A stretch of DNA of 64,000 nucleotides from Candidatus Limnocylindria bacterium (lineage in GTDB: Bacteria > Chloroflexota > Limnocylindria > QHBO01): positions 277-64,276 of the forward strand of contig DASWIE010000003.1 in NCBI GenBank assembly GCA_036397815.1, read 5' to 3'. The position numbers and the translations under genes were made by a program. The notes beneath the pieces were generated by a model. It ran no database searches. It had not been told where the DNA came from and saw only the letters and a program-made list of their open reading frames with translations. This document shows, piece after piece, positions 1,052 to 59,580 of the stretch. How positions within the stretch are numbered: the first letter of the stretch is position 1; every line of letters starts with the position of its first letter.

Positions 1052-2887
1052 ATGGCGATTGACTCAGACGAGGTCCGTACTGAAGCATCCGAGCTCCTCG
1101 ATGCGGGTGCGCACGACCCGCTCGACACGATGCGTCACTCCGCGGCCCACGTCATGGCAGCCGCCGTGCTCTCGCTCTTTCCGGGGGCCAAGCTGGGCAT
1201 CGGTCCCGCCATCCGGGACGGCTTCTACTACGACTTCGACCTCCCTCGGGCGCTGACTCCTGCCGACCTCGAGGCGATCGAGGAGGGCATGCGCGCGCAG
1301 GTGGCCGCCGACCTGCCGTTCGAGCGGACCGAGCTCGACCGCCCCGCCGCGCTCGAGCAGCTGGCGAGCGACGGCCAGGACTACAAGGTCGAGATCGTAC
1401 GCGACCTCCCTGAGGAGGACGCGCGGGTCGTCAGCTTCTACCGGCACGACGGCTTCAGCGACCTGTGCCGGGGACCGCACGTGGCGTCAACCGGCAGGCT
1501 GGGACCCTTCAAGCTGCTCAACTCGGCAGGCGCCTACTGGCGCGGCGACGAGAAGCGACCGATGCTGCAGCGAATCTACGGCACGGTCTGGGAATCCCAG
1601 GAGGACCTGGATCGATACCTGTGGCGCCTGGAAGCGGCGAAGAAGCGCGACCACCGCAAGCTGGGGCGCGACCTGGACCTGTTCAGCTTCCATCCCGAGT
1701 CACCGGCTGCGCCGTTCTGGCATCCGCGTGGCATGGCGCTGTGGCGGGCGCTCGAGGACTGGTCGCGCGAGGTCCGCCGCGACGGCGGGTTCTCTGAGGT
1801 GCGTACTCCGATCGTGGTGCGCAAGGAGCTGTGGGAGACATCGGGCCATTGGGAGCTGTACCAGGACAACATGTTCGTTCTGGACGACTACGATCACGTC
1901 TCGGGCCTGAAGCCGATGAACTGCCCGGAGGAGATGGTCATCTATAAGACCACCTCCCGCTCCTATCGCGACCTGCCCATGCGCTTCTCCGACTACTCGA
2001 ACCTGATGCGTCGCGAGCGAACCGGGGCGCTGGCCGGCATGTTCCGCGTCCGGCAGCTGACCCAAGACGACAGCCACGTCTTCTGCCGCGAGGACCAGGT
2101 GGTCGACGAGGTGAACCTGGCCCTGTCGCTCGTTCAGAAGCAGTACGCCCCGTTCGGGCTGAAGCCGACCTTCAAGCTGGCCACGCGGCCGGAGAAGCGG
2201 CTCGGCTCCGACGAGTTCTGGGAGATGGCCGAAGGGAAGCTGCGGGAGTCGCTCGAGGCGGGCGAGATTCCCTACACGGTGGATCCTGGCGGCGCGACCT
2301 TCTACGCACCCAAGATTGACGTCTACGTCGAGGACGCGCTGGGCCGCGAGTGGCAGATGCCGACGATTCAGCTCGACTACCAGCTCCCGCAGCGCTTCGA
2401 CCTGGAGTACCGCGCGGCCGATGGTGGCTTCGAGCGGCCGGTGGTGATCCACTACGCCATCTACGGCAGCTTCGAGCGCTTCATCGGGGTCATCACCGAG
2501 CACTACGCGGGAGCGTTTCCCGCCTGGCTGGCGCCGGTGCAGGCGATGGTGATCCCGATCGCCGACCGGCACGTCGAGTACGCCGCGCGGGTGCGCGACG
2601 AGCTGATCGCGGCCGACCTGCGCGCCGAGGTAGACGACCGCTCGGAGCGGATGCAGGCCAAGCTGCGGGACGCCCAGGAGCAGAAGATCCCCGTCATGCT
2701 GGTGGTGGGGGATCGGGACGTCGAGGCTGATGCTGTCAGCCCGCGGCTGCGGACCGGCGAGTCGATGCAGGGCGTGCCGCTGGGCGAGTTCGTGGCCGAC
2801 CTGCGACGCCGGGTCGCGGCGCGCGAGCTCTGGCCCTACGCCGAGGATGGGGACAGCGGCGATAGCGCCGGCGTTGCCGCCACCTAG
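1052..2887 (+). CDS. thrS: threonine--tRNA ligase, lacking an N-terminal TGS domain
   Basis: 611 aa. Editing-domain HxxxH (RHSAAHVMA) sits near residue 28, followed by class II core motifs and an anticodon-binding tail. The stop TAG lies inside repeat copy c1. Confidence 0.95.
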   Translation: MAIDSDEVRTEASELLDAGAHDPLDTMRHSAAHVMAAAVLSLFPGAKLGIGPAIRDGFYYDFDLPRALTPADLEAIEEGMRAQVAADLPFERTELDRPAALEQLASDGQDYKVEIVRDLPEEDARVVSFYRHDGFSDLCRGPHVASTGRLGPFKLLNSAGAYWRGDEKRPMLQRIYGTVWESQEDLDRYLWRLEAAKKRDHRKLGRDLDLFSFHPESPAAPFWHPRGMALWRALEDWSREVRRDGGFSEVRTPIVVRKELWETSGHWELYQDNMFVLDDYDHVSGLKPMNCPEEMVIYKTTSRSYRDLPMRFSDYSNLMRRERTGALAGMFRVRQLTQDDSHVFCREDQVVDEVNLALSLVQKQYAPFGLKPTFKLATRPEKRLGSDEFWEMAEGKLRESLEAGEIPYTVDPGGATFYAPKIDVYVEDALGREWQMPTIQLDYQLPQRFDLEYRAADGGFERPVVIHYAIYGSFERFIGVITEHYAGAFPAWLAPVQAMVIPIADRHVEYAARVRDELIAADLRAEVDDRSERMQAKLRDAQEQKIPVMLVVGDRDVEADAVSPRLRTGESMQGVPLGEFVADLRRRVAARELWPYAEDGDSGDSAGVAAT

Positions 2888-3028
2888 CAATGTGGTTACT
2901 GCTAAGCGGCTATTTCGGGCGGGTAGTCACACTTCTACGGCCTACTCACGCTCAACAAATACTCATGCGAGACGCCGCGCGCCCGGTTGTGTCGCTTACA
3001 ACCAACGTGGTTACTGAGAGACGGGAAC
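2873..3028 (+). repeat. palindromic MITE-like repeat, canonical copy c1
   Basis: Left arm GTTGCCGCCACCTAGCAATGTGGTTACTGCTAAGCG. Right arm CGCTTACAACCAACGTGGTTACTGAGAGACGGGAAC. Same architecture as c2-c4. Confidence 0.85.
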
Positions 3029-3053
3029 TGGGCCGAAAACGGGGCTGGCGCAC

Positions 3054-3419
3054 GTGAGAAAGATGCGTGGCGTTGGGCAGCTGGCCCTGGCGTCGACCGA
3101 TCCGGGTCGCGTCGCCGAATTTTACGAGGCGGCATTCGGATTCCGCCGCCGCGCCGGCGACGAGACCGGCGTCGACCTGGAGCTGGGCGGCTTCGAGCTC
3201 AGCTTCCGCCGCGGCGAGCGTGCCACGCGCGAGGGCATGCAGATTGGCTTCCGGGTCGACACCGCCTCCGAGGTCGACGCCTGGGCCCAGGAGCTGGGCC
3301 AGCGCGGGTTCGCGCTGGTCGGGCCACCATCGGGCGACCGATGGGAGGGAACCCGCTCCTTCCGGGTGGCGGACCCCGATGGACGCCAGGTGGCGGTCTT
3401 CTACGACTATCCGAATTGA
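3054..3419 (+). CDS. VOC (glyoxalase/bleomycin-resistance/dioxygenase) family protein
   Basis: 121 aa with VOC-like beta-alpha-beta pattern (LALASTDPGRVAEFYEAAFGF ... FRVADPDGRQVAVF). Start is GTG 3054 or ATG 3063. Confidence 0.7.
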   Translation: MRKMRGVGQLALASTDPGRVAEFYEAAFGFRRRAGDETGVDLELGGFELSFRRGERATREGMQIGFRVDTASEVDAWAQELGQRGFALVGPPSGDRWEGTRSFRVADPDGRQVAVFYDYPN

Positions 3420-3431
3420 CGATGTAGACCG

Positions 3432-6400
3432 ATGACCGTCGCCGAGCGCGCCTGTCCCAGCTGCGGATCCGGCAACCCCGAGCGGTCTCGGTTCTGCTGG
3501 TCTTGTGGCACGGGGTTGGCGGTCGAAGGCACCGCTCCAGCCGAGACGCGGAAGACGGTGACCATCTTGTTCTGCGATGCCACCTCGTCCACCGCATTGG
3601 GGGAGAAGCTCGACCCCGAATCGCTGCGGAACCTGATGACGCGCTACTTCGATGTGATGCGCGCGGTGATCCAATTCCACGGCGGCGTGATCGAGAAGTT
3701 CATCGGCGACGCGGTCATGGCCGTATTCGGAGTTCCAACCCTTCACGAGGACGACGCACTGCGCGCCTGCCGGGCAGCGGTCGAGATCCGCGAGCGGCTG
3801 GCCAGTCTCGACGCCGAGATCCGCGCCGACCAGGGCGCCACCATCGAGTGGCGGATGGGGGTCAACACCGGCGAGGTCGTGGCCGGAGACGCCAGCGTCG
3901 GCCAGCGGATCGTGACCGGCGACGCGGTCAACGTCGCGGCGCGCCTGGAGGCAGCGGCGACGCCTGGCGAGATCCTGCTCGGCCCGGACACGCATGCGCT
4001 GGTCCGCGCGGCAGTCACCGCCGAGGCGCTCGAGCCGCTGCCGCTCAAGGGCAAGGCCGAGCCAGTGCCCGCCTGGCGGCTGATGGAGGTGCTCGACACC
4101 ACCTATCGACACGTCCGTCCGCTGGAGGCGCCGCTGGTCGGACGGCGCCGGCCGCTGCGCCTGCTCGACGAGGCCTTCCGCGAGTCTGTCGAGGAGCGGA
4201 TCTGCCACCTGTTCACCATCCTCGGCGTGGCGGGGGTGGGGAAGTCGCGGCTGGTCGACGAGTTCACCGCGTCGCTGGGGGATCAGGCCCGGCTGGCCAC
4301 CGGTCGCTGCCTGGCCTATGGCCACGGCATCACCTACTGGCCGGTGGCCGAGGCCATCCGCCATGGAGCCGGCATCGCCGAGGGTGACCCGCCGGAGACG
4401 GCGATCGCCCGGCTGCGCGAGGTGCTTGGCGCGGAGCCGGAGGCCGAACGGATCGCGGCAATTGTGGGCGGTCTGCTGGGCATCGAGGACAGCCCGCCGG
4501 CGCCGGACGAGATCTTCTGGGCCATCCGCAAGACGTTCGAGGCGCTGGCCCGCAGCCAACCGCTGGTCCTGGTCTTCGATGACGTGCACTGGGGCGAGCC
4601 CACCTTCCTGGACCTGGTCGAGCACATCGCCGACTGGACGCGCGACGCGCCGATCCTGCTGATCGTGATGGCCCGCGCCGAGCTCCTGGAGAAGCGGCCG
4701 GCGTGGGGCGGCGGCAAGCGGTGGGCAACCACCATGTCGCTCGAGCCCCTGTCGGAGGTGGAGAGTGAGGAGCTGGTCGCCAGCCTGCTGGGACGCACCG
4801 AGCTGCCGCCCGAGATGCGAGGCCAGATCAGTCGGGCAGCGGAGGGAAATCCGCTGTTCGTCGAGGAGCTGCTCGGCAAGCTGATCGACGACGGCTTCCT
4901 GGTGACGGCCGGTGACGGATGGTCCGCCCTGGGTGACATGCATCAGCTGGTCATCCCGCCCACGATCCAGGCCCTCCTGGCGGCCCGCCTGGATGGGCTC
5001 AACGGCGAGGAGCGGTCGGTCATCGAGCGCGCCGCCGTGGAGGGCAAGGTCTTCCATCGCGGGGCCGTGACGGAGCTGGCGCCGGAGCCGATGCGCGGGC
5101 AGGTTCGCGAGCGGCTGGCGAGCCTGATGCGCATGGAGCTCGTCCGTCCCGACCAGGCGTCGTTCGCAGGCGAGGAGGCGTATCGGTTCCGGCATCTGTT
5201 GATCCGTGATGCCGCGTATCAAGCCCTCGCCAAGCAGACTCGCTCAGAGCTGCATGAGCGGTTCGCCGCCTGGCTCGAGCGCGTCGCCGCCGATCGCCTG
5301 TCCGAGTACGAGGAGATCGTGGCCTACCACCTGGAACAGGCCTATCGCTACCGGATCGAACTCGGCCCGGCCGACGCCCGCGCGCAGGAGCTGGCGCGTC
5401 GAGCCGGGAGCCTGCTGGCCGACGCCGGTGAGCGGGCCGACGCGCGCGCGGATGTTGCCGCAACCATCGACCTGCTGGGCCGAGCCGTCGAGCTGTTGCC
5501 GGAGGACGTGCCACGACGACGCCGGCTGCTCGTCACGCTCGGCTTCCGGTATTACGACGGCGGCGATGCGCCGCGCGCTGAGGAGATCCTGACCAGTGCG
5601 ATCGCGGAGGCAGACCGCGCCGGTGACGAAGGCGCGAGCGCGCTGGCCGCGCTTGTCCTGGCCGCGGTGCGGATGTCGACACGTTCTCCCGAGATGTCGG
5701 AATCGTTGCGAGAGGTGGAACGACTTACCGCGACCCTGGAACGCGTGGGCGATGAGGCCGGGGCACGCCTGGGACAGGCCTGGGCCGCGTTCGTGCTGTT
5801 CGGAATGGGTCGTGCGGGCGAAGCGAGGTCACGGGCCGAGGCCCTCGTCGAGCTGGGCGAAGGGGACGAGTTCTGGCGCTCGGAGGCTCGGATGGCCAGG
5901 GGCGCGGCAATGGTCTTCGGTCCCACGCCGATCGACGAGGCCATTCGCGAAATTCAGGCAGCCTTGGACCGCGCCGCAGCGCGCGGGCCGTCACTCGGAG
6001 CCTATATGGGCCTCGCGCGGCTGCAGGCTCTCCAGGGTCGCCTCGCTGAGGCGCGCGAGCTGCTCGCGCGCGCGCAGGCGGCATCCGAGGAGCTCGGCAA
6101 CCGACAAATGCTGGCGTCGATCGCCGAGGTCGCGGGACGACTCGAACACCAGGCGGGCGACCTTACCGAGGGCGCCAGACTCCTGCGTGAGTCATATGAA
6201 GCGATGACCGCGCTCGGGGACCGGTCGTTCGCGTCGACGATTGCTGTGGGGCTGGGTGAGGTTCTCCTCGACCTCGGCGACGATGCCGAGGCGATGCGGT
6301 TTGGGACCATCGCGCGGGACACCTCTTCGACCGACGACGTGGCCTCCCAGGCCGGCGGGCGATCGGTGCAGGCGCGGGTCCTGTCTCGGCGTGGTGGGCA

Positions 6401-6638
6401 CGACGCCGCGGAGGCGTTGGCCCAGGAGGCGGTCGCGATCAGGGCCAAGACGGACTATCTCGATCAGCACGGCGGAGCCCTGGTCCACCTTGCGCATGTG
6501 CTCCGCGATTCCGGCAAGGCGGACGAAGCGTTGGCTGCAGCTCGCCAGGCACTGGCCCTTTACGAGCAGAAGGGAGCGACCTACTACGTCGACAAAACCC
6601 AGGGCCTGATCGACGACTGGACGGCCGATGCTCGTTGA
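3432..6638 (+). CDS. zinc-ribbon / class III adenylate-guanylate cyclase / AAA(STAND) NTPase / TPR multidomain signalling protein
   Basis: 1068 aa. CPSCGSGNPERSRFCWSCG ribbon; cyclase core (TILFCD...FIGDAVMAVFG...GVNTGEVV...GDAVNVAARLE); Walker A GVAGVGKSRL; long helical repeat C-terminus. Confidence 0.85.
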   Translation: MTVAERACPSCGSGNPERSRFCWSCGTGLAVEGTAPAETRKTVTILFCDATSSTALGEKLDPESLRNLMTRYFDVMRAVIQFHGGVIEKFIGDAVMAVFGVPTLHEDDALRACRAAVEIRERLASLDAEIRADQGATIEWRMGVNTGEVVAGDASVGQRIVTGDAVNVAARLEAAATPGEILLGPDTHALVRAAVTAEALEPLPLKGKAEPVPAWRLMEVLDTTYRHVRPLEAPLVGRRRPLRLLDEAFRESVEERICHLFTILGVAGVGKSRLVDEFTASLGDQARLATGRCLAYGHGITYWPVAEAIRHGAGIAEGDPPETAIARLREVLGAEPEAERIAAIVGGLLGIEDSPPAPDEIFWAIRKTFEALARSQPLVLVFDDVHWGEPTFLDLVEHIADWTRDAPILLIVMARAELLEKRPAWGGGKRWATTMSLEPLSEVESEELVASLLGRTELPPEMRGQISRAAEGNPLFVEELLGKLIDDGFLVTAGDGWSALGDMHQLVIPPTIQALLAARLDGLNGEERSVIERAAVEGKVFHRGAVTELAPEPMRGQVRERLASLMRMELVRPDQASFAGEEAYRFRHLLIRDAAYQALAKQTRSELHERFAAWLERVAADRLSEYEEIVAYHLEQAYRYRIELGPADARAQELARRAGSLLADAGERADARADVAATIDLLGRAVELLPEDVPRRRRLLVTLGFRYYDGGDAPRAEEILTSAIAEADRAGDEGASALAALVLAAVRMSTRSPEMSESLREVERLTATLERVGDEAGARLGQAWAAFVLFGMGRAGEARSRAEALVELGEGDEFWRSEARMARGAAMVFGPTPIDEAIREIQAALDRAAARGPSLGAYMGLARLQALQGRLAEARELLARAQAASEELGNRQMLASIAEVAGRLEHQAGDLTEGARLLRESYEAMTALGDRSFASTIAVGLGEVLLDLGDDAEAMRFGTIARDTSSTDDVASQAGGRSVQARVLSRRGGHDAAEALAQEAVAIRAKTDYLDQHGGALVHLAHVLRDSGKADEALAAARQALALYEQKGATYYVDKTQGLIDDWTADAR

Positions 6639-6688
6639 CCGGATGTTCGAAATCGGTGTAAGATCCGCGGGCGTTTTCGCGTGATGTG

Positions 6689-6716
6689 GGCCACCTGCCC
6701 GACTCGGCCGGTGGCC
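6689..6716 (+). terminator. GC-rich hairpin between the cyclase gene and infC (terminator or infC-leader structure)
   Basis: GGCCACC-N14-GGTGGCC followed by TGTCTGTTG. No clean U-tract. Confidence 0.35.
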
Positions 6717-6741
6717 TGTCTGTTGAAGGAGCGACGACACC

Positions 6742-7428: not shown

Positions 7429-7433
7429 GACCA

Positions 7434-7631
7434 GTGCCGAAGATCAAGACACACAAGGGAACCGCCAAGCGGTTCAAGAAGACCGGATCCGGGAAGTGGG
7501 TCCGGCCGAAGGCGTGGCGCGGCCACCACCTGGAGATCAAGTCGAGCCGCCGCACGCGCCGCTACGCCGGCAAGGCGGTCGTCTCGCCCACCCACGCGAA
7601 GCAGCTCGAGCGGCTGCTGCCGCACGCCTAG
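7434..7631 (+). CDS. rpmI: 50S ribosomal protein L35
   Basis: 65 aa, MPKIKTHKGTAKRFKKTGSGK...; sits between infC and rplT. Confidence 0.95.
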   Translation: MPKIKTHKGTAKRFKKTGSGKWVRPKAWRGHHLEIKSSRRTRRYAGKAVVSPTHAKQLERLLPHA

Positions 7632-7640
7632 GCTGGACCG

Positions 7641-8202: not shown

Positions 8203-9276
8203 GTGAGCGACCTCTCGGGGCGGCTGGAGCATCTGCGCGAGGAGGCGCAGGCCGCGCTGGCCAAGGCCAGCGACGCCGAAGCCGTCGAGGCGCTGCGCAT
8301 CGGTCTACTCGGACGATCGGGCGAGCTGACAACGCTGCTGCGAAGCCTGAAGGAGGTCGAGCCGGCGGATCGCGCTGCGGTGGGCAAGCTGGCGAACGCC
8401 GTCCGCGACGAGGTCGAGGGGGCGATCCGCGATCGCCTGCAGGCGCTGCAGGGAGGCGCACTGGAGGCGCGGCTGGCGGTCGAGACGATCGACATGAGCG
8501 CCCCGGGACGGCCCGTGCGCCTGGGCCACCTGCACCCGACAATGACCGTCGAGCGCGACCTGCGTGAGATCTTCCACGCCTTCGGCTTCGAGGTATTCGA
8601 GGGGCCCGAGATCGAGACTGAGGCGATGAACTTCGAGGCGCTCAACATCCCGCCCGACCACCCGGCGCGCGACCTGTGGGACACGCTCTACGTGGCCGAG
8701 CCCGGCAGCGATCCGCCGCGGGCCAGCGAGGACGGCACCATCCTGCGCACGCACACCAGCCCGGTGCAGATCCGCGCCATGCTCGCGCTGCCGCTCCCGA
8801 TTCGGGTCATCACCCCCGGTCGCTGCTTCCGCTACGAGGCGGTGGACGCAAGCCACAACTTCGAGTTCTTCCAGGTCGAAGGCCTGGTCGTCGACCGCGA
8901 AACCTCGCTCGCCGACCTGAAGGGGATGCTGGAGGAGTTCGCCCGCGCCCTCTACGGCCGGGAGACGCGCACCCGCTTCCGGCCGGGCTACTACCCATTC
9001 ACGGAGCCATCGGTCGCCTTCGACATCGGTTGCCTGGTCTGCGGGGGAGATGGGTGCCCCGCCTGCGGCCGGACCGGCTGGATGACGATCCTGGGCGCCG
9101 GCATGGTACATCCACTTGTCCTGCGGGCCGGCGGGATCGACCCGGACGAGTTCCAGGGCTACGCCTTCGGAATGGGGCTCGACCGCATCACGCTCCTGCG
9201 TCACGGCATTCCCGACCTGCGGCTGCTGATGAGCGCCGACCTGCGCTTCCACGAGCAGTTCCCGGGAGGCCGGTAG
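8203..9276 (+). CDS. pheS: phenylalanine--tRNA ligase alpha subunit
   Basis: 357 aa with HPARDLWDTLY, RTHTSPVQIR and class II motifs. GTG start. Confidence 0.95.
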   Translation: MSDLSGRLEHLREEAQAALAKASDAEAVEALRIGLLGRSGELTTLLRSLKEVEPADRAAVGKLANAVRDEVEGAIRDRLQALQGGALEARLAVETIDMSAPGRPVRLGHLHPTMTVERDLREIFHAFGFEVFEGPEIETEAMNFEALNIPPDHPARDLWDTLYVAEPGSDPPRASEDGTILRTHTSPVQIRAMLALPLPIRVITPGRCFRYEAVDASHNFEFFQVEGLVVDRETSLADLKGMLEEFARALYGRETRTRFRPGYYPFTEPSVAFDIGCLVCGGDGCPACGRTGWMTILGAGMVHPLVLRAGGIDPDEFQGYAFGMGLDRITLLRHGIPDLRLLMSADLRFHEQFPGGR

Positions 9277-22529: not shown

Positions 22530-22662
22530 GTCGCCGTGGTGTGCACTAACTGGCCTGCGGTGTCGTGTGAGCTGCCTACGCAGGCGGCGTGTGCGCTACG
22601 GCCTTCCTGACCGAGCGGACGCGAATAGTGCCTCCACGGTGTGCGTAAGGGAGGGCGCGGAA
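22530..22662 (-). repeat. possible decayed repeat copy at the 3' end of the truncated HTH-nuclease paralog
   Basis: Minus-strand read: TTCCGCGCCCTCCCTTACGCA...GGCACTATTCGCG...CGTAGC...CTCACACGAC...CCAGTTAGTGCACACCACGGCGAC. This is collinear by eye with c3 (TTCCTGTCTCCTAGCAAT...GTTACTGCTAAGCG...CGTAGC...TTCACGCTCAG...CCAGTAACCAGGTTGCTGATAGACGGC). Confidence 0.3.
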
Positions 22663-22929
22663 GGTCATCGGCCCACTAGGCGCGTCGCCGTAGTCTCGCG
22701 GACGTCGGAGCCACGCAAGCGCCGCACCTCGATCGGACGCGAAGCGTGCAAAGAGGTCCGGGTGCGTGCGCACGTGACGCCGCGACGTCGATGAATCCGC
22801 CAGCACTAGGAGTGGCACCACTGTCCTTCGGCGCCAACCTTGCTCGCGTGCAACGCGACCCGCCACTCGCACCTTCACATCCAGCCGGCCCAGCAGATCC
22901 TGCATCTTCGGCCCGACTCGACCGGCCAT
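22576..22929 (-). pseudogene. truncated paralog (C-terminal half only) of the HTH/PD-(D/E)xK-like protein encoded at 43840..44664
   Basis: The 117-aa ORF aligns with residues ~135-240 of the 274-aa protein: MQDLLGRLDVKVRVAGRVAREQGWRRRTVVPLLVLADSSTSRRHVRTHPDLFARFASDRGAALAWLRRP versus VQDLHSAMARKRRIVPSLLTKELGWRPMTVGQLLVVGEASAQRRLVDRHSEIFAATFAQRGREARAWLAHP. Only 58 nt separate it from the upstream gene, leaving no room for the HTH or nuclease core. Confidence 0.6.
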
Positions 22930-22987
22930 GGGCCGATCGTAACAACGACTCCTTATCGGTCACGTAATCGGTCATTACGCGCGCAAC

Positions 22988-28423: not shown

Positions 28424-28568
28424 GTTCCCGTCAGCCAGTACCAGGGTTACTGGTAAGCGACTGCTCAAGCCGTCATCGGGCGGGTCGGAGCGTGAGATTG
28501 GACCCGGCGACGGTGCGTAGGCGCCATTTTTCTGCTTAGCAGTAACCCGGTTACTGAGCGACGGGAAG
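28424..28568 (-). repeat. palindromic MITE-like repeat, canonical copy c2 (inverted relative to c1/c3/c4)
   Basis: GTTCCCGTCAGCCAGTACCAGGGTTACTGGTAAGCG ... GCTTAGCAGTAACCCGGTTACTGAGCGACGGGAAG. Its inner arms are the exact reverse complements of the c3/c4 inner arms. Lies between the convergent GNAT and uricase genes. Confidence 0.85.
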
Positions 28569-43839: not shown

Positions 43840-44664
43840 ATGGACGATCTCAGGGTCGGGCTGGTGCTTCGTGCCCTTCGCCGCCGACTCGGCTGGCGGC
43901 AGCTGGATGTCGCAGCGCGTGCCGGCGTGAGCCAAAGGCTGGTGTCGCTGGCGGAGGCCGGCCAGCTTGAACGGCTCACGCTTCGCAGCCTGCGCGCGAT
44001 CGGCCGCGCTCTCGAGGTTCGCGTCCCTGTCGAACCGCTCTGGCGCGGCGGTCAGCTTCCTCGGCTTCTCGACGGGGAGCATGCAGCGCTCGTGAACGCT
44101 GTGGCCGCGATCATGCGCCGCCGTGGCTGGCAGATCCTCGTGGAGTACACGTTCAACCACTTCGGCGATCGAGGATCCGTAGACCTGGTGGGGTGGCATC
44201 CGCAACATCGGGCATTGGTCTTGGTGGAGGTCAAGAGCCGGATCACCGACGTTCAGGACCTGCATTCCGCAATGGCGCGGAAGCGCCGGATCGTGCCCAG
44301 TCTTCTGACCAAGGAACTTGGCTGGCGGCCCATGACCGTTGGCCAGCTGCTGGTCGTAGGTGAAGCGAGCGCACAGCGGAGGCTTGTCGACCGCCACAGC
44401 GAAATTTTCGCAGCGACCTTCGCGCAGCGAGGACGGGAGGCGCGCGCCTGGCTGGCTCACCCGGCCGGAACGCTATCGGCCCTCTGGTTCCTGTCTCCTA
44501 GCAATGGCGTTACTGCTAAGCGACGGGAACGGCTGCCGCAGCGGATTCGTAGCCAGAATTCACGCTCAGCAAGCCCCGCGCGACGGCCTCAAGCACCGCC
44601 CAAGTCGCTTACCAGTAACCAGGTTGCTGATAGACGGCAAGCGGACGCTCCGGCGTCAGAATAG
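43840..44664 (+). CDS. XRE-type HTH + PD-(D/E)xK-like (restriction-endonuclease-fold) protein; the C-terminal ~60 codons are encoded by repeat copy c3
   Basis: 274 aa. HTH is LRRRLGWRQLDVAARAGVSQRLVSLAEAG. Putative nuclease core is GDRGSVDLVGW-x10-LVLVEVKS. The ORF enters c3 at codon ~216 (WFLSPSNGVTAKRR...) and stops 23 nt past it. Confidence 0.75.
   Translation: MDDLRVGLVLRALRRRLGWRQLDVAARAGVSQRLVSLAEAGQLERLTLRSLRAIGRALEVRVPVEPLWRGGQLPRLLDGEHAALVNAVAAIMRRRGWQILVEYTFNHFGDRGSVDLVGWHPQHRALVLVEVKSRITDVQDLHSAMARKRRIVPSLLTKELGWRPMTVGQLLVVGEASAQRRLVDRHSEIFAATFAQRGREARAWLAHPAGTLSALWFLSPSNGVTAKRRERLPQRIRSQNSRSASPARRPQAPPKSLTSNQVADRRQADAPASE
44487..44641 (+). repeat. palindromic MITE-like repeat, canonical copy c3
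   Basis: GTTCCTGTCTCCTAGCAATGGCGTTACTGCTAAGCG ... CGCTTACCAGTAACCAGGTTGCTGATAGACGGCAAG. Confidence 0.85.
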
Positions 44665-45243: not shown

Positions 45244-45296
45244 GCCGCTAGAATCGGTCACATGTTCGATTCGCGCCCACCCGGCGGGTTCTACAC

Positions 45297-52367: not shown

Positions 52368-52373
52368 GCGTCG

Positions 52374-52922: not shown

Positions 52923-52927
52923 GCATC

Positions 52928-53100
52928 CTGCCGTGCCAGCGTTTCGCAGATGCGCACCCACAGATCGTTAGCGACTGTCGCGGGGCACCATGGGCGATCC
53001 GCACCGCCAGGCTGAGCACGAATTAGGCACCGTCGGGGCAAGCGAGCCCCGGTGGCAGGCGCTTACGTTCCGTACGCGCGCATTTGCGAAAATCGCCGCC
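52928..53100 (-). repeat. possible decayed copy of the palindromic repeat family
   Basis: Starts 6 nt after the recX stop. CTGCCGTGCCAGC (cf. TTGCCGTCTATCAGC); GTTAGCGACT; GCTGAGCACGAATTAGGC versus the reverse complement of the c3 core, GCTGAGCGTGAATTCTGGC; CGCTTACGTTCCGTACGCGCGCATTTGC versus CGCTTAGCAGTAACGCCATTGC. Confidence 0.35.
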
Positions 53101-53189
53101 GCACGACCCGATCGCCGATGCCAGCCGCGGTATCGTGGACGGGTAGCATCGGTCCATCAACCGCATCCGACACGGCTTGGGTGAGCTGA

Positions 53190-54152
53190 ATGCGCTTCGC
53201 ACTGATGACGGAGCCCCAGCAGGGGCTCAGCTACGACGAGATCCTGGCCCTGGCCCGCGCGGCCGAAGACGCGGGCCTCGAGACGTTCTTCCGCTCCGAT
53301 CACTACACCAGCTTTCCGGGCGAGGCGGGACTGCCGACCACCGACGCCTGGGCGACGCTGGCCGGGCTGGCGCGCGACACGACGCGCATCGGCCTCGGCA
53401 CGCTCGTCTCGCCGGTCACCTTCCGCATCCCCGGCCCCTTCGCGAAGATGGTCGCCACCGTCGACGAGATGAGCGGCGGACGGATCGAGCTGGGCATGGG
53501 CGCCGGCTGGAATGACGAGGAGCACGCAGAGCTGGGCATTCCGTTTCCACCCCTCGGCGAGCGGTACGACATGCTGCAGGAGGCGGTCGCCATCGTCCAC
53601 GGCCTGTGGACGGAGCCGGACGGCTGGGGCTTGGAGGGCAAGCACTGGCGCGTGGCCGGATCGCGCTTCCATGCCAAGCCGGCGCGGAATGGACGTCGCC
53701 ATCCGCCGATCATCCTGGGCGGCGACGGCGGCCCGCGCCTGGCTCGCCTGGCGGCCCGCTACGCGGACGAGTTCAACCTCTCCTCCGCCACGCCGCAGAA
53801 GGCCCGCGAGGCATTCGGCCGCATGCGCGACACGTGCGTGGCAATCGACCGCGATCCGGGCAGCCTGCGCCTCTCGGCCATGACCGGCGTGCTTCTCGCC
53901 GACTCCCCAGGAGAGCTGCGCGACCGGATCCGCGAGCAGCTGGCCTTCACCGGCGCCGGCGACGACGCCGAGGCCTGGCTGGCCGATCGTCGGGATCGTT
54001 GGATCCTCGGCACCCTGGACGAGGCCAGCTCACGGGTGCAGGCGCTCGCCGACGCCGGGGCCGAGCGCATCATGCTCCAGGACTTCCTGCCCCGCGACGT
54101 GGCGATGGTGGGGCTGATGGGCCACCTGGCAGCCGCGATGGCCGGCGGATGA
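53190..54152 (+). CDS. LLM-class (luciferase-like) F420-dependent oxidoreductase
   Basis: 320 aa; MRFALMTEPQQG...RSDHY...GTLVSPVTFR...GMGAGWNDEEH. Confidence 0.85.
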   Translation: MRFALMTEPQQGLSYDEILALARAAEDAGLETFFRSDHYTSFPGEAGLPTTDAWATLAGLARDTTRIGLGTLVSPVTFRIPGPFAKMVATVDEMSGGRIELGMGAGWNDEEHAELGIPFPPLGERYDMLQEAVAIVHGLWTEPDGWGLEGKHWRVAGSRFHAKPARNGRRHPPIILGGDGGPRLARLAARYADEFNLSSATPQKAREAFGRMRDTCVAIDRDPGSLRLSAMTGVLLADSPGELRDRIREQLAFTGAGDDAEAWLADRRDRWILGTLDEASSRVQALADAGAERIMLQDFLPRDVAMVGLMGHLAAAMAGG

Positions 54153-54340
54153 CCGATGCACCCGGCTGCCGCCGGGGTGGGTCGCGCCGAGTTGCGGTAC
54201 ACTCGCCGGGCGGCTTGATCCTGGCTTCATCAATCGTCGACCGGCCGCCGAGAATCGCCTGAACTCGATGCAGTTGACCTGCGCCCGACCGTTGCGGGCG
54301 CCACATCGCCCATAACCGGGCTCCAACCACGGAGGAGCCG

Positions 54341-55873
54341 ATGCCTGACATCACGTTCGCCCTCCCGGCGGCGCTCGTCGCCCTCATCCTCGGTGTGGCG
54401 ATCGGATACGTCGCTCGCCGATACCTGGCCGCCAGCGCGGTCAAGCATGCCGAGCATTACGCGGAGCGCCTGGTCGCCGAGGCGCGCGCCAAGCAGAAGG
54501 AGATCGTCCTCGAGGGCAAGGACGACGCGCTGCAGGCGCAGCGCGCTGCCGAGGAGGAGGCGCGCGAGAAGCGAGCCGAGCTGCTGCGCCAGGAGCGCCT
54601 CCTGCTCGATCGGTCCGAGAGCCTGGATCGCAAGGTCGAGGCGCAGGAGCGACGGGAGGGCGCACTCGAGGAACGACAACAGGAGCTCGAGGGGGAGCGA
54701 GCGGCTCTCGCCGAGCTCGAGCAGCGGCAGCTGGTTGAGCTGGAGCGCGTCAGCGGCCTGTCCGTGGCCGAGGCTCGGCAGTCGCTGATCGGCCACATCG
54801 TCGACGAGGCTCGCGCTGAAGCGCAGCAGCAGGTGCGCGAGATCGAGAGGCGGGCGAACGACGAGGGCGACGAGCGCGCGCGGCGGATCCTGACCACCGT
54901 CATGCAGCGCATCGCCGCCGACCACACCTCGGAAGCGACCGTCACGGTGGTCCCCTTGCCCAGCGAGGAGATGAAGGGCCGCATCATCGGCCGCGAGGGT
55001 CGCAACATCCGGGCGCTGGAGCAGGCCACCGGCGTCGACCTAATCATCGACGACACGCCCGAGGCGGTGGTGCTCTCGGGATTCGATCCCGTGCGCCGCG
55101 AGGTGGCGCGGATGGCCCTCACCAAGCTGATCAGCGACGGGCGGATCCACCCCGGGCGGATCGAGGAGATGGTGGCCAAGTGCCGCGCCGAGATCGAGGT
55201 CGTGATGCGCCAGGCCGGCGAGCAGGCGGCGTACGACGCCGGCGTGCCGGGCCTGCATCCCGAGCTCATCAAGCTCCTCGGCCGGCTGAAGTACCGCACC
55301 AGCTATGGGCAGAACGTGCTCAACCACTGCATCGAGACGGCGCGCCTGGCCGGGTTGCTGGCCGCCGAGATCGGCGCCAACGTGGCCGAGTCGAAGAAGG
55401 GCGGCCTGCTGCATGACATCGGCAAGGCGATCGACCACGAGGTGGAGGGGCCCCACGCGCTGATCGGCGGCGACGTCGCGCAGCGCTATGGGGTCAATGC
55501 CACGGTCTGCAACGCCATCGCCGCGCACCACCAGGAAGTCGAGCAGGCCTCGACCGAGGCGACCGTGGTGCAGATCGCCGACGCGATCAGCGCCTCGCGC
55601 CCCGGCGCGCGCGGCGAGTCGCTCGACAACTACGTGAAGCGCCTGGACGACCTGCAGCAGATCGCGCTCAGCTTCCCCGGTGTCGAGCGCTGCTTCGCCA
55701 TCCAGGCCGGCCGCGAGATCCGGATCCTAGTCCGCCCGGAGGATATCGACGACCTCGCCTCGTCGCGCCTGGCGCGCGACGTGGTGAAGAAGATCGAGGA
55801 GCAGCTCCAGTACCCCGGGCAGATCAAGGTGACGGTGATCCGCGAGACGCGCGCCATCGACTACGCCCGATGA
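54341..55873 (+). CDS. rny: ribonuclease Y
   Basis: 510 aa; N-terminal TM, coiled coil, KH (GRIIGREGRNIRALE) and HD (LLHDIGKA). Confidence 0.95.
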   Translation: MPDITFALPAALVALILGVAIGYVARRYLAASAVKHAEHYAERLVAEARAKQKEIVLEGKDDALQAQRAAEEEAREKRAELLRQERLLLDRSESLDRKVEAQERREGALEERQQELEGERAALAELEQRQLVELERVSGLSVAEARQSLIGHIVDEARAEAQQQVREIERRANDEGDERARRILTTVMQRIAADHTSEATVTVVPLPSEEMKGRIIGREGRNIRALEQATGVDLIIDDTPEAVVLSGFDPVRREVARMALTKLISDGRIHPGRIEEMVAKCRAEIEVVMRQAGEQAAYDAGVPGLHPELIKLLGRLKYRTSYGQNVLNHCIETARLAGLLAAEIGANVAESKKGGLLHDIGKAIDHEVEGPHALIGGDVAQRYGVNATVCNAIAAHHQEVEQASTEATVVQIADAISASRPGARGESLDNYVKRLDDLQQIALSFPGVERCFAIQAGREIRILVRPEDIDDLASSRLARDVVKKIEEQLQYPGQIKVTVIRETRAIDYAR

Positions 55874-56679
55874 CGGACCGCGCCGCGCTGCTGCGGTGCA
55901 TGGTCATCGGCGACATCATCGGCAAGCCTGGCCGCCTGGCGGTGGTGCAGACCCTGACCGACATGCGCGGCGAGCTGGACCTGGACCTGGTGGTGGCCAA
56001 CGGTGAGAACGTGGCCGCCGGCGCGGGCCTGACGCCGAGCCTGGCGGAGGAGCTCCTTTCGCACGGCGTGGACGTCATCACCAGTGGCAACCACGTCTGG
56101 GACAAGCGCGAGGTGTACGAGTACCTCGACTCGGGGCGGCCGGTACTGCGACCGATGAACTACCCCGATGACGCGCCCGGTCGGGGCTGGCTCGTCCACC
56201 CGCTGCCCGATGGGGGGCAGGTGGCCGTGGTCAACGTCATGGGACGCGTCTTCATGAATCAGCTCGACTCGCCGTTCAGCGCGATGGACGCGCTGCTCGA
56301 CGGCGCCGCCGAACCCCTGCCCCCGGTCCGGATCGTCGACTTCCACTGCGAGATCACGTCCGAGAAGAACGCGATGGGCTGGTTCCTCGACGGTCGCGTG
56401 AGCGCGGTGGTGGGGACCCACACCCACGTGCCCACCGCCGACGCGCGCGTGCTGCCGAAGGGGACCGCCTACATCAGCGACGTGGGCATGACCGGGCCGC
56501 GCGACTCGATCATCGGGTTCAGCCTGGAGACCGTGCTGCCGCGGTTCCTGACGCACCTGCCGACCCGCTTCCACGTCGCGGACGGGCCGGTCTCCCTCAA
56601 CGCGGTGGTGATCACCGCAGAGCGCGCCACCGGACGAGCTCGCTCGATCGACCAGGTGCAACGCCTTATCGAGGTCTGA
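55870..56679 (+). CDS. ymdB: TIGR00282/YmdB family metallophosphoesterase
   Basis: 269 aa; GDIIGKPGR...ANGENVAAG...DFHCE. ATGA overlap with rny. Confidence 0.9.
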   Translation: MTDRAALLRCMVIGDIIGKPGRLAVVQTLTDMRGELDLDLVVANGENVAAGAGLTPSLAEELLSHGVDVITSGNHVWDKREVYEYLDSGRPVLRPMNYPDDAPGRGWLVHPLPDGGQVAVVNVMGRVFMNQLDSPFSAMDALLDGAAEPLPPVRIVDFHCEITSEKNAMGWFLDGRVSAVVGTHTHVPTADARVLPKGTAYISDVGMTGPRDSIIGFSLETVLPRFLTHLPTRFHVADGPVSLNAVVITAERATGRARSIDQVQRLIEV

Positions 56680-56691
56680 TCCGCGCGACCG

Positions 56692-57654
56692 ATGGCGCCG
56701 CCGACTCCGCGCCGACCCGCCCCCTCACCGCCGATAGCCGCCATCGTCGGCCCGACCGCGTCGGGCAAGACCGACCTGGCGCTGGCCGTCGCCCGTCGCC
56801 TGCCAGTGGAGATCCTGGTGGCGGACTCCCGGCAGGTGTACCGCGGCATGGACATCGGCACCGCCAAGCCCGACGCCGCGGCGCGCGCGGCGGTCCCACA
56901 TCACCTCCTCGATCTGGCCGATCCGGATGAGCCCTTCTCGGTCGTCGACTGGCTGGCGGGTGCCCGCTCGCTGGTCCCCGAGGTGGCGGCCCGCGGACGG
57001 CTGCCCCTGATCGTCGGCGGCACCGGCCTGTACGTCTCGGCCCTGCTGGACGGCTACGAGCTGCCGGGCCAGGCGCCGCCGCCCGAGCTGCGCCGCCGCC
57101 TGGTCGCCGAGCTCGAGACGAGCGGGCTGCCGCCCCTCGCCGCGCGCCTGTCGCGCGTGGACCCGGCCGCGGCGGCGCGCACCGACCTGCGCAATCCCCG
57201 GCGCGTCCTGCGCGCGCTGGAACGGGTCGAGGCGGCCGGTGGGGGAGCGGCCCCCGCCGCCGGCGCGGCTCCCTATCCCGGGCGGATGGCCATCCTCGGC
57301 CTCAGCCGGCCGCCGGACGTCCTGCGCGCGCGGGTGGATGCGCGCGTGGCCTGGATGTTCGGCAACGGGCTGCTCGACGAGGTTCGAGGCCTGCTCGACG
57401 CCGGTTACGACGCGGACCAGTCACCGATGACCGGCCACGGCTACCGCGAGGCGGCGCGGGTGCTGGCGGGGGAGTGGAACGTGGCGCGGGCGATCGAGGT
57501 CACCGCTCGCCACACAAGGCAGTACGCAAAGCGCCAGGTCACCTGGCTGCGGCGCGACGCGCGGATCGTGTGGCTACCGGCTGGTGCGCTGCCGGCGGAA
57601 GACCCGGCGCTGGTCGAGCAGGCGGTCGACTTGCTGCGGGCCCTGCTGGCCTGA
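56692..57654 (+). CDS. miaA: tRNA dimethylallyltransferase
   Basis: 320 aa; GPTASGKTDLAL, DSRQVYRGMDIGTAKP. Confidence 0.93.
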   Translation: MAPPTPRRPAPSPPIAAIVGPTASGKTDLALAVARRLPVEILVADSRQVYRGMDIGTAKPDAAARAAVPHHLLDLADPDEPFSVVDWLAGARSLVPEVAARGRLPLIVGGTGLYVSALLDGYELPGQAPPPELRRRLVAELETSGLPPLAARLSRVDPAAAARTDLRNPRRVLRALERVEAAGGGAAPAAGAAPYPGRMAILGLSRPPDVLRARVDARVAWMFGNGLLDEVRGLLDAGYDADQSPMTGHGYREAARVLAGEWNVARAIEVTARHTRQYAKRQVTWLRRDARIVWLPAGALPAEDPALVEQAVDLLRALLA

Positions 57655-57657
57655 CCG

Positions 57658-59301
57658 TCAGGCCGCCGGCAGGCCGATCGACTGCCGCCAGGCGGCGAGC
57701 TCGGCGGATGTGGACGGGACGCCGGCGGCCTCCACGCGACGTAGCGGTTCGAAGACCGGCGCGGCGGCGGATGGCACCAGGTCGCTCTCGGGCAGCGCGC
57801 CAGGCCGCCCGAGCAGGTAGCCCTGCCCGGCGGGCACGCCCAGGGCGAGCAGCTGTGCGACCTGCTCCGGGCGCTCGACGCCCTCGCCCACGACCAGCGC
57901 GCCGGTGCGCGACGCGAACGAGACGACGGACTCGACGACCGCGCTGGAGGAGGCGTTCGAGGCGCTGCGCTGCACCAGGCTCAGATCCACCTTGACGACG
58001 TCGAAGCGCATCTCGCTGAGCAGGCGCAGGCCGGCGTTGCCGGCACCGACGTCGTCGGCGGCCAGGCGGATACCGGCGCCCCGGCAGGTCTCGAGCTTCT
58101 GGCGCACGCGCTCCAGATCGGTGATCGGCTGCTGCTCGGTGAGCTCCAGGATCAGCCGCTCGGGCGGGAAGTGATGGCGGACCAGGATGCTGAGCAGGGC
58201 GGCGGCGCTGAACTCCGGCGCCTCGACGGTGGCCGGCGATATGTTGACCGACAGGTGATACTCCGGCGCCAGGTCCTCCGCCCCGGCCACGATCGTCTCG
58301 ATGCAGGTCAGGTCGAGTGGCAGCAGGTGGCCGCTGGCGGCGGCCGCGGCGAAGAGGCTGTCGGGATCCACGAACGGCGCGGGAGGGATCGGCCGAATCA
58401 GCCCCTCGAAGCCAAGGACCCGGCCGCTCTCCAGCTCGACGATCGGTTGATAGACCGGGCGCAGCTGCGAGCGGGCGATCACCTCGGCCACGGCCGCGGA
58501 CGAGCTGGCGTCGACCGCCATCGGCTCGGTGGCGACGTCGAAGATCACCACGTCGGTCCGCCCGGCTCGCTTGGCGCTGTACAGGGCCGCATCGGCCTGG
58601 GTGTAGAGCTGGGCGCGGGTCGTGGCCGGTTCCGGCAGGGCGCTGATGCCGGCCGAGAAGGAGAGCGACGCGTCGCCGTCGTCGCGCAGCGGTGGCTGCA
58701 GCGCGTTCGCCAGCAGCCGGCGCGTCACGATCTTGGCCGCCTCCGCGTCGGTGTGCGGCAGCAGGATCGCGAACTCATCGCCGCCGATGCGGAATGGCCG
58801 GTCGACGCGGCGCACGGAGTGCGCCACGAGGTTGCCGAAGCGTGCCAGCGCGCGATCGCCGCCGGCGTGGCCCTTGCTGTCGTTGATCGCCTTGAACTCG
58901 TCCAGGTCGAGGATAACCAGCGACACCGGCACGTCGTAGCGCTGCGCGGCCTCGACCTGCCGGTCGAGCTCCTCCTGGAAGGCTCGATGGTTGCCGAGCC
59001 CGGTGAGCGGGTCGCGCAGGGCATCGGCGAGCGCCTCCTGGTAGCGGTCCTGGAGTTCGGCGCGCGAGCGCGCCAGCGGGGTGATGACATACCGATGCAG
59101 ACCGATCCCGACCAGCAGCGCGGCACCGAGGCCGCTGGCAACGCCGCGCAGCGCGGCGTTGTCGACGTAATCGACGATGACCCGGTCGATGATGATCGCG
59201 GCGGCGATGCTCGCGGCCAGCGCGACGGACAGCCGCAACCAGAGGCCGAACCGCGACTCGCGGCCCCGACCCCCGGCCTGCGCCTGTGCAGCGACGTTCA
59301 T
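57658..59301 (-). CDS. membrane-anchored GGDEF/EAL-domain c-di-GMP protein
   Basis: 547 aa from ATG 59301 (SD GGAGAGG); RIGGDEFAILL, then EGLIRP...DDVGAGNAGL. The upstream 67 codons of ORF ..59502 run into repeat c4 and are rejected. Confidence 0.88.
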   Translation of the reverse strand: MNVAAQAQAGGRGRESRFGLWLRLSVALAASIAAAIIIDRVIVDYVDNAALRGVASGLGAALLVGIGLHRYVITPLARSRAELQDRYQEALADALRDPLTGLGNHRAFQEELDRQVEAAQRYDVPVSLVILDLDEFKAINDSKGHAGGDRALARFGNLVAHSVRRVDRPFRIGGDEFAILLPHTDAEAAKIVTRRLLANALQPPLRDDGDASLSFSAGISALPEPATTRAQLYTQADAALYSAKRAGRTDVVIFDVATEPMAVDASSSAAVAEVIARSQLRPVYQPIVELESGRVLGFEGLIRPIPPAPFVDPDSLFAAAAASGHLLPLDLTCIETIVAGAEDLAPEYHLSVNISPATVEAPEFSAAALLSILVRHHFPPERLILELTEQQPITDLERVRQKLETCRGAGIRLAADDVGAGNAGLRLLSEMRFDVVKVDLSLVQRSASNASSSAVVESVVSFASRTGALVVGEGVERPEQVAQLLALGVPAGQGYLLGRPGALPESDLVPSAAAPVFEPLRRVEAAGVPSTSAELAAWRQSIGLPAA

Positions 59302-59426
59302 GGGCCTCTCCAACGCCCCCCGGGATGATGCGGATAGGTATGGCACACCATGGTGGGGGATGGCGAGTGACCGATAAGTACCAGTCGCCGTTCCGAGGGG
59401 CGCCCGGCGATCGCCTCGAGGGCCCG

Positions 59427-59580
59427 CTTTCTGTCTCTTAGCAATACCGTTACTGCTAAGCGAGCAAACGAGTGCCGCAGGCAAGATGGCTCCCTCGTCC
59501 ACGCTCAGCGGGGACGGTCCGATAGGCCAATCGGGACTCGCGATTCGCTTACCAGTAACCAGGTTGCTGAGAGACGGGAC
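59427..59580 (+). repeat. palindromic MITE-like repeat, canonical copy c4
   Basis: CTTTCTGTCTCTTAGCAATACCGTTACTGCTAAGCG ... CGCTTACCAGTAACCAGGTTGCTGAGAGACGGGAC. Confidence 0.85.

Follow-up and report, generated by a model that had tools for sequence, protein, structure and literature searches.

Four palindromic segments of about 155 bp, here termed c1 to c4, lie scattered along a 64,000-nucleotide stretch of contig DASWIE010000003.1 from Candidatus Limnocylindria bacterium (assembly GCA_036397815.1; this whole stretch is hereafter the window), and they raise the question of whether they belong to a mobile repeat family, and if so of what kind and by what means it spreads. An earlier, sequence-only reading of the window had proposed an undescribed dispersed palindromic family resembling miniature inverted-repeat transposable elements (MITEs) or the repetitive extragenic palindromic (REP), BIME and Correia elements, and this proposal is upheld here: further members exist, their sites occur in filled and empty forms, and no match turned up in Rfam, plasmids, phages, E. 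coli genomes, viral contigs or the searchable literature. We are confident that the copies represent a real, dispersed family of palindromic repeats of the REP/MITE kind, gained and lost over time, which is undescribed yet ordinary in kind (REP/REPIN/BIME-like). With appreciably less assurance, but on balance, we favour the fuller statement that they are a lineage-specific, non-autonomous REP-doublet (REPIN/BIME) repeat that may be mobilised by a Y1-type enzyme.

Direct reading and alignment place the four segments where they had been described and with the architecture given for them, namely paired outer and inner arms in inverted orientation around a variable centre. The inner arm GTTACTGCTAAGCG matches exactly in c1, c3 and c4, and the inverted inner arm CGCTTACCAGTAACC matches exactly in c3, c4 and reverse-complemented c2, both as first reported. 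Mean column identity in the c1–c4 alignment is 71% across approximately 160 nt, with the arms carrying most of the identity. When up to three mismatches were allowed, GTTACTGCTAAGCG gave eight matches in the window against 1.5 expected (0 of 100 shuffles as high) and recovered all eight arm positions; CGCTTACCAGTAACC gave nine against 0.5 expected and the outer arm GGTTRCTGAGAGACGGGAA four against 0.03, the observed counts again being reached by no shuffle. Whole-element and single-arm profile searches of the window found neither a fifth copy nor a solo arm. The window has a G+C content of 70% and little room between its genes: most intergenic gaps are shorter than 100 nt, and the copies fill four of the approximately 12 gaps that exceed 140 nt. 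Their gene contexts also proved to be as previously given: c1 overlaps the thrS stop, c2 lies between convergent genes 10 nt from the uricase stop, c3 forms the 3′-end of an open reading frame (ORF), and c4 lies between divergent genes (Table 1). The gene on the far side of c1 from thrS encodes a glyoxalase, and c4 is separated from hflX by 62 nt and from the GGDEF-EAL gene by approximately 130 nt.

Beyond the window, the family appears specific to its lineage. A strict two-arm pattern had no match in 185,579 species genomes, a collection that lacks the source genome and its canonical copies, while the one-arm pattern AGYAAYNNNGTTACTGSTAAGCG found 17 metagenome loci and three loci in genome contigs, of which one is a chance match and the other two are real, lying in a Chloroflexota metagenome-assembled genome (MAG) and in a second MAG that bears the label Ca. 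Dormiibacterota. After removal of window duplicates, this search for more members, which the sequence-only reading had recommended, leaves approximately 16 further distinct copies, all of them complete doublets on contigs of the same Limnocylindria lineage, with at least 10 distinct loci in one sample. The loci are numbered with the prefix L; two of them, L024 (Desulfovibrionaceae) and L020, were discarded as chance matches, and L016 is a copy broken off by a contig end. The window ThrS has a 100% identical protein on soil and sediment metagenome contigs. Rfam returned no window match at gathering thresholds, a permissive run giving just noise at E~1–7 on c3 and c4. Searches of PLSDB plasmids, GenBank phages, complete E. 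coli genomes and IMG/VR viral contigs found no match, and the searchable literature held nothing for the arm strings or for Limnocylindria repeats. As an aside, near-identical proteins or contigs of this lineage are variously labelled Ca. Limnocylindria, Limnocylindrales, Chloroflexota, Ca. Dormiibacterota, Ca. Binatia, Zixibacteria and Ca. Angelobacter, and because these source labels conflict, MAG taxonomy labels for the Limnocylindria group should not be trusted as given.

An alignment of 19 copies (38 arms), set in one orientation, reveals the anatomy of the element. Each copy is a doublet of two inverted units of 37–40 nt, with their tails inward and CGTC flanks outward, and complete copies measure 140–165 nt. 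A unit begins with the 5′ flank (T)TCC-CGTC-TC (TCCCGTCTC), in which CGTC is found in 19 of the 38 arms and TGTC in 6, at one fixed column 2–3 nt from the stem; its core is an imperfect 7-3-7 palindrome, CAGCAAY-NNN-GTTACTG, with 86.5% of cells paired and a C·A mismatch mid-way in the 7-bp stem that is fixed (18/19 left arms); and it ends in STAAGCGAC, a tail of 9 nt. The left unit differs slightly in type from the right one, the stem 7-mer having AAT on the left versus AAC on the right, the loop being variable versus CTG, and the S position of the tail being C versus G. This last difference produces the arm–arm C·C mismatch that had first been taken as a marker of polarity, which occurs in 14/19 copies and is not obligatory, as L006 and L014 carry C/C-type or G/G-type arms on both sides. 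The right arm further holds a near-perfect 8-1-8 dyad, CAGTAACC-A-GGTTGCTG, and the nested palindrome CAGTAACC-C-GGTTACTG described for c2 is indeed present in that copy.

The centre of the element had been described as poorly conserved, and its sequence does drift, but its length is constrained, and exactly halfway along it stands a single conserved 12-mer, TTCACGCTCAGC. In 15/19 copies the tails are 79–81 nt apart; this spacer is shorter in c2 (69 nt) and shortest (59 nt) in L018 and the L017/L019/L025 group. The short islands thought to recur in the centre fared differently: CACGCTCA belongs to the conserved 12-mer, whereas TGCCGCAG is not family-wide. Since the 12-mer is itself polar, it confirms what the C/G marker had indicated, that c2 is inverted relative to the other copies, for the motif (TTCACGCTCAGC in c3, TCTCACGCTCCG in c2) lies on the minus strand of c2. 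We also note that the spacer classes of 79–81, 69 and 59 nt correspond to steps of about one and two helical turns, a pattern that rests on three independent events only, and that the loss in the L018 spacer is symmetric about the central motif (24 + 12 + 23 nt). The three 140-nt copies with a 59-nt spacer form a subtype (L017, 2490–2629, minus strand; L019, 247–386, minus strand; L025, 4554–4693, plus strand) in which the central motif is weak or absent; they occupy one orthologous site, with downstream proteins 81–95% identical, between a RecA-fold (ImuA-like) gene and a gene of ~355 aa without a Pfam match. Their right outer arm (GGCGGGAG), in which the sequence has changed to ATCYGGCGGGAG, lies approximately 10 nt upstream of the GTG start of the downstream gene and may act as a ribosome-binding site.

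Table 1. Positions in the window of the repeat copies, their parts and the features that adjoin them.
Feature	Position	Strand	Description
Copy c1	2873..3028	+	Left arm gives the thrS stop codon; right inner arm partly decayed (CGCTTACAACCAAC)
Copy c2	28424..28568	-	Inverted relative to c1, c3 and c4; spacer 69 nt; between convergent GNAT and uricase genes
Copy c3	44487..44641	+	Canonical copy; 3′ tail of the HTH_3 ORF; 30 nt upstream of a MobA-like NTP-transferase gene
Copy c4	59427..59580	+	Between hflX and the GGDEF-EAL gene, in the divergent promoter region
Left REP-like unit of c3	44487..44524	+	5′ flank GTTCCTGTCTCC (TGTC variant of CGTC), stem TAGCAAT, loop GGC, stem GTTACTG, tail CTAAGCGAC; from the alignment of 38 arms, pair counts and tag census
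Right REP-like unit of c3, inverted	44604..44641	+	GTCGCTTAC, CAGTAAC, CAG, GTTGCTG, ATAGACGGCAAG
Central motif TTCACGCTCAGC (c3)	44559..44570	+	Spacer midpoint, 34 + 12 + 34 nt
Central motif counterparts	c1 2945–2956; c4 59498–59509; c2 ~28486–28497		c2 counterpart on the minus strand
thrS stop TAG	2885..2887	+	Within the left arm of c1 (CCACCTAGCAAT)
Ancestral thrS/glyoxalase TGA, Shine-Dalgarno and ATG junction	3055..3065	+	Still present (TGAGAAAGATG) downstream of c1; L030, whose site is empty, reads TGAGGAAGATG
HTH_3 ORF	43840..44664	+	XRE-type helix-turn-helix (HTH_3) domain and weak YraN/UPF0102 PD-(D/E)xK-like region (D...EVK)

Evidence of gain and loss comes from orthologous loci, which were fetched through the flanking proteins and hence blind to the element. 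All copies either lie between genes or cut into the end of one, and all four window sites are polymorphic, being empty in relatives whose flanking proteins are 90–92% identical; copies are gained or lost between close relatives. The c1 copy is present in L026 and L027/L028 (ThrS 94% identical) and absent from L030 (90%) and L029 (91%); in L030 the thrS stop lies 5 nt from the next start, and in L029 a cupin gene stands in place of the element. The thrS stop of L026 and L027 is arranged as in c1, whereas the element-free L030 ends thrS at TGA. No relative was found to carry c2, and in L031 and L032 (XDH 91% and 90%) the GNAT and uricase genes abut or overlap at this site, each of the two proteins being a few residues shorter in the window. 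The c4 copy is shared with L034 (HflX 96%) and missing from L035 (91%), while L036 (HflX 92%; MAG GCA_046725855.1, ~8813–9012) keeps only TTTCGCC...CAGACGGGA at this site, with the right flank as in element-bearing relatives and without the ~135-nt interior, which may be a deletion or excision footprint.

How copies enter these sites bears on whether the family is a classical MITE, that is, a deletion derivative of an insertion sequence (IS) with a DDE transposase, whose terminal inverted repeats would be the 37-nt arms and which the parent IS would mobilise in trans. Long terminal inverted repeats of this kind (37 nt), a size below 300 bp, an AT-poor and unconserved interior, filled/empty site polymorphism and the lack of solo arms would all suit a MITE. 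However, just as the sequence-only reading had been unable to read one unambiguously, no target-site duplication exists at any offset: across 15 independent copies and all offset pairs, a duplication of at least 3 nt recurs in 3 copies at most, and a direct repeat longer than 2 nt is absent from every filled/empty junction compared, although these junctions are not resolvable to the nucleotide because the flanking tails are variable. Nor was a parent IS seen among the approximately 20 loci seeded by single arms, none of which has arms more than ~165 nt apart, or in the rest of the DNA compared, and the genes of the window and the compared loci include no transposase or integrase. Moreover, the arms are internally palindromic with a fixed mismatch, a feature typical of ends that are recognized as single-stranded DNA and not of the terminal inverted repeats of DDE elements, and old orthologous copies stay conserved, which those of a decaying MITE would not. 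With no duplication and no parent IS seen in the DNA compared, we judge a classical MITE quite unlikely; a REP doublet fits better, because it accords with the lack of a target-site duplication and because each arm is itself a REP-like imperfect palindrome. A candidate rule of insertion 5′ of TGAG, suggested by the empty sites of c1 and c2, was not adopted, as it rests on two cases with ambiguous junctions and leaves 12–30 nt beside the right arm unexplained.

Conservation at orthologous sites, where stems and tails are 93–96% identical against about 70–73% at four-fold synonymous sites, points to sequence-specific recognition of the arms. Two pairs of orthologous copies were ascertained independently of the element, and in both the stems and tails are identical at 43/46 positions, against 0.72 (L026–L027; P = 3e-4) and 0.735 (c4–L034; P = 6e-4) at four-fold synonymous sites of the flanking gene. 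The central 12-mer is identical at 11/12 and 12/12 positions, respectively, and the rest of the spacer at 0.57 and 0.53, although in a gapped alignment the whole spacer including the 12-mer is 0.69–0.70 identical, which is roughly neutral. Two more pairs, c3–L021 and L017–L025, gave 44/46, but were found through one arm and are therefore biased. The exception is c1, in which the right inner arm has decayed (0.80–0.83 identical) and the spacer cannot be aligned with those of L026 and L027. Taken together, these comparisons point to arms and a 12-mer that are recognized by something sequence-specific, or else homogenized by gene conversion, and to linkers that change but keep their length.

Such constraint could also mean that the element has been domesticated as double-stranded DNA to which a host protein binds in shaping the nucleoid, in supercoiling or in regulation, with the arms and the 12-mer bound jointly and mobility a thing of the past, much as gyrase or IHF (integration host factor) is bound by BIMEs. 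Arm stems, tails and the central motif that are constrained while the linkers drift, a motif placed exactly midway (34 + 12 + 34 nt), spacer classes that lie about one and two helical turns apart, the near-perfect 8-1-8 dyad in the right arm and the want of solo arms are all in keeping with this idea. Yet the length classes reflect three independent events only, the fixed C·A asymmetry of each arm speaks against a dimer simply binding duplex DNA, there is no known candidate for the protein, and sites are gained and lost between close relatives while c1 decays, which implies that individual sites are dispensable. We therefore consider a purely domesticated site unlikely, but binding by a host protein would be compatible with a mobile REP doublet as a secondary, co-opted role. 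A bolder reading, which we think has only a slim chance of being correct, holds that the family goes beyond a selfish repeat in decay and that the two 37-nt arms and the 12-mer form a selectively maintained three-part module, fixed in spacing in roughly helical-turn steps, whose partner is a protein other than a RAYT. That partner could be a new enzyme recognizing single-stranded or cruciform DNA, for which the helix-turn-helix and PD-(D/E)xK-like ORF, fused to c3 and co-polymorphic with it, would be a candidate, or it could be a lineage-specific nucleoid or regulatory protein. If true, such a module would be the first REPIN-like partnership of host and element outside the RAYT systems of the Proteobacteria type, and its host would be a class of uncultured Chloroflexota from soil.

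The arms might instead be conserved for the RNA that they form. The whole element folds far better than shuffled sequences (z = -5.8 for c4 as DNA and z = -3.4 for c3 as RNA), with predicted RNA minimum free energies of -47 to -78 kcal/mol. These very stable hairpins, together with the presence of copies within operons and beside gene ends, where transcription is expected, and an orientation that nearly always matches a neighbouring gene (including 4/5 informative tandem-gene cases), would fit a structured RNA element in which the long hairpin is selected as an mRNA stabilizer, processing site, attenuator or small RNA gene. But the covariation test on aligned copies, another check that the sequence-only reading had proposed, came out negative: in the 19-copy alignment, 81.2% of arm–arm cells are paired versus 81.0% when the 3′ letters are shuffled within columns, and compensatory changes do not exceed those of shuffles, for the long hairpin and the local arm hairpins alike. 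Pairing of the arms is thus explained by two conserved inverted sequences, with no sign of selection for pairing itself. The C·C mismatch is systematic (14/19 copies), and what is conserved is the primary sequence and not the pairing. The ‘loop’ of such an RNA would be the 80-nt spacer, which by itself folds no better than shuffles (mean z ~0 on both strands across the 19 copies). In addition, the copies have neither a sigma-70-like promoter nor an intrinsic terminator in common, Rfam holds no match, L008 is antisense to both of its neighbours, and c4 sits between divergent genes. Given the missing covariation and an unstructured 80-nt ‘loop’, we find an RNA element improbable. Separately, in the spacer of c2 a small G+C hairpin precedes ATTTTTCT (28512–28535, plus strand), antisense to the element and downstream of the GNAT gene; this terminator-like site is unique among the copies.

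The c3 locus differs from the others in that the copy comes and goes with a gene. The last ~59 codons of the HTH_3 ORF are encoded by c3, and together ORF and copy form one presence/absence block of ~804 nt (about 43845–44648), which is in L021 and missing from L031 and L032. The NTP-transferase downstream is about equally distant from that of the window in all three (62% identity for L021 vs 65% and 68% for L031/L032). The L021 orthologue of the ORF enters the left arm and stops in the spacer. Such a block recalls an integron gene cassette, in which c3 would be an attC-like site and the other copies would be empty cassettes or secondary-site insertions, and the comparison gains from an imperfect palindrome of 140–160 bp with a polarity-giving conserved mismatch and a variable centre, from GTT/AAC triplets in box-like 7-mers, and from one ORF and element that behave as a single ~0.8-kb unit. 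Nevertheless, the 7-mers CAGCAAY/GTTRCTG do not fit RYYYAAC/GTTRRRY, and conservation runs 10–11 nt past the would-be R boxes, an extension that attC sites are not known to have. There is also no cassette array or integrase in the window or the compared loci, and three of the four copies lack a cassette ORF, with copies dispersed among housekeeping genes. The box sequences and genomic context disfavour the attC reading, which we regard as having next to no likelihood. The ORF likewise gave no sign of being a mobile cassette in its own right: all seven contigs with the exact protein represent the same locus, and tblastn against all compared loci recovered only the L021 orthologue and a truncated paralogue in the window, neither of them beside another copy.

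We return, then, to a mobile REP doublet, and to how it might spread. The arms would be recognition sites for a sequence-specific protein that acts in trans, the likeliest candidate being an unlinked HUH/Y1 transposase (RAYT- or TIRYT-like) that works on a folded single strand, as with REPINs, and copies would have spread by a cut-or-copy-and-paste route, inserting between genes where the spacers of this compact genome are very short. Judging from anatomy, side effects of such insertion would include the new stop codon of thrS, the new C-terminal tail of the HTH ORF, a parting of genes that once abutted or were coupled, and an RNA hairpin of great stability in any transcript that crosses a copy. 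A Y1 transposase of the RAYT/TIRYT type seems the most economical guess for the mobilizer; even so, a Y1/RAYT-like mechanism, taken by itself, is something we put forward tentatively and with more doubt than conviction.

Several observations tell against the REP-doublet reading. A search by regular expression found no RAYT-like Y..NP ORF in six frames of the window and the other loci (~0.5 Mb of lineage DNA), and an arm-only profile scan with filters off found no solo arms or degenerate copies, of which classical REP families have many. Copy number seems modest, with four copies in 64 kb and a single locus with exact arms in the related MAG GCA_046725855.1, and approximately 200 kb of DNA from relatives yielded no extra non-orthologous copy; a REPIN system would have tens to hundreds of copies and a cognate single-copy RAYT (Y1/HUH) gene flanked by its own REPs. 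Unlike the spacers reported for REPINs, that of the present family does not fold, and its conserved 12-mer is not a described REPIN feature, although it recalls the IHF site of E. coli BIME-1. Finally, the conservation of the arms could reflect gene conversion between copies or a host function unrelated to transposition.

A few other features of the window deserve mention. The truncated paralogue noted above corresponds to the C-terminal part of the HTH/nuclease ORF (22576–22929, minus strand; 39% identity over 71 aa) and sits in a gap of 479 nt bordered by an EF-G-like gene on one side and a membrane-protein ORF on the other, with no adjacent repeat copy. Upstream of c4, a non-coding block, GGCGAGTGACCGATAAGTACCAGTCGC (~59362–59386, plus strand), is conserved in L034, L035 and L036 regardless of the element, and could serve the GGDEF-EAL gene as an operator or a leader. 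A 12-mer of this block, GTGACCGATAAG, also occurs upstream of the truncated paralogue (22952–22963, minus strand), making two exact matches. Rfam gave no match here. Between the NTP-transferase gene and ruvB lies TAGAATCGGTCACATGTTCGATTC (45249–45272, plus strand), with a partial dyad GAATCG...CGATTC, which is 100% conserved between the window and L021 though the flanking genes are approximately 62% identical at the protein level, and ruvB may have a promoter or a repressor (SOS-type?) site here.

The Limnocylindria, once called Ellin6529, are uncultured Chloroflexota that abound in soil and freshwater and are known only from MAGs, and to our knowledge they have no described repeat family. Contig breaks and gene-call artefacts in such assemblies are likely to arise from a 155-bp palindrome that is dispersed in this way, and here it provides the annotated stop of thrS and 59 codons of the HTH ORF, while its filled and empty sites offer a lineage-specific marker for typing strains and species in metagenomes. 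The family also provides a test case for vertically persistent, sequence-constrained REPIN-like elements outside the proteobacterial RAYT systems. Two features stand out, the constraint on the arms and central motif and the lack so far of a partner gene; constraint on arms and a mid-spacer 12-mer, without RNA covariation, is a testable hint of a sequence-specific protein partner.

Among known repeats, the family shares with ERIC/IRU and Correia elements an imperfect palindrome of approximately 127–155 bp that lies in transcribed intergenic regions and is polymorphic between strains, and ERIC is unusually conserved across species. Those elements, however, insert at TA with duplication and have conserved interiors, whereas the Limnocylindria family has no target-site duplication, a drifting interior and no sequence similarity to them. 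Closer in plan is the BIME-1 (RIB/RIP) element of E. coli, an inverted pair of differing REP types (Y and Z1) of ~100–150 bp around a site for integration host factor (IHF), found at gene 3′-ends and in operons. Our copies similarly consist of two slightly different inverted units with a motif in the middle, again at gene 3′-ends and in operons, but blastn against all complete E. coli genomes showed no sequence similarity, and the 12-mer does not fit the IHF consensus.

The outward-facing tag invites comparison with the CGTC super-family of REPs, whose four families form mostly ‘HH’ dimers with tags outside and spacers of 20–100 bp (Di Nocera, De Gregorio & Rocco 2013; PMC3733652). In those families, an unpaired CGTC (or TGTC/CCTC) tetranucleotide marks one end of the stem-loop, stems of 8–9 bp start A-T, loops are 4–5 nt, a 3-nt CCA-like tail follows, and the tag abuts the stem (PMC3733652). 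CGTC or TGTC stands on the outer side of 25/38 arms here, the same TGTC variant occurring in both systems, and all complete copies are likewise HH dimers with tags outside and with spacers (59–81 nt) of similar length and different sequence. Both also occur between unidirectional or convergent genes and inside gene ends, and neither has a known associated transposase. In contrast, the Limnocylindria unit has a 7-bp stem that starts C-G and contains an internal mismatch, a 3-nt loop, a 9-nt STAAGCGAC tail, and a tag 2–3 nt off the stem, and the tag match may be coincidental. From Chloroflexi, CGTC repeats have not been reported, only GTAG-23 (PMC3733652).

REPINs provide the nearest model. They pair two REPs in inverted orientation, each REP being a palindrome flanked on its 5′ and 3′ sides, around a less conserved spacer of characteristic length, they are extragenic, and the whole forms a hairpin (PMC3337134) whose spacer is itself organized as a hairpin (PMC3337134); those of Pseudomonas and Enterobacteria are mobilized by RAYT transposases (Bertels & Rainey 2011; PMC3337134, PMC3116915). 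Our family differs in its longer units (37–40 nt), which lack the GTAG tag, in its host (the Chloroflexota class Limnocylindria), in a spacer that does not fold and that carries a mid-spacer 12-mer, in an apparently modest copy number with no singlets seen, and in the want of a RAYT among the ~0.5 Mb of lineage DNA. The lack of a GTAG tag, the poor fit to the stem, loop and tail of the CGTC families, the non-folding spacer with its central motif, and the lack of singlets place it outside any described family. Yet it resembles REPINs in its inverted REP units, each an imperfect palindrome with conserved flanks; in its characteristic spacer length (~80 bp, compared with 71 or 110 bp in SBW25), with no two spacers alike; in a whole element that folds as a long hairpin; and in copies that are extragenic, without target-site duplication, and conserved and persistent at orthologous sites. 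Because these features of REP dimers and REPINs are matched, and no target-site duplication is present, we file the elements as a new REP-doublet family.

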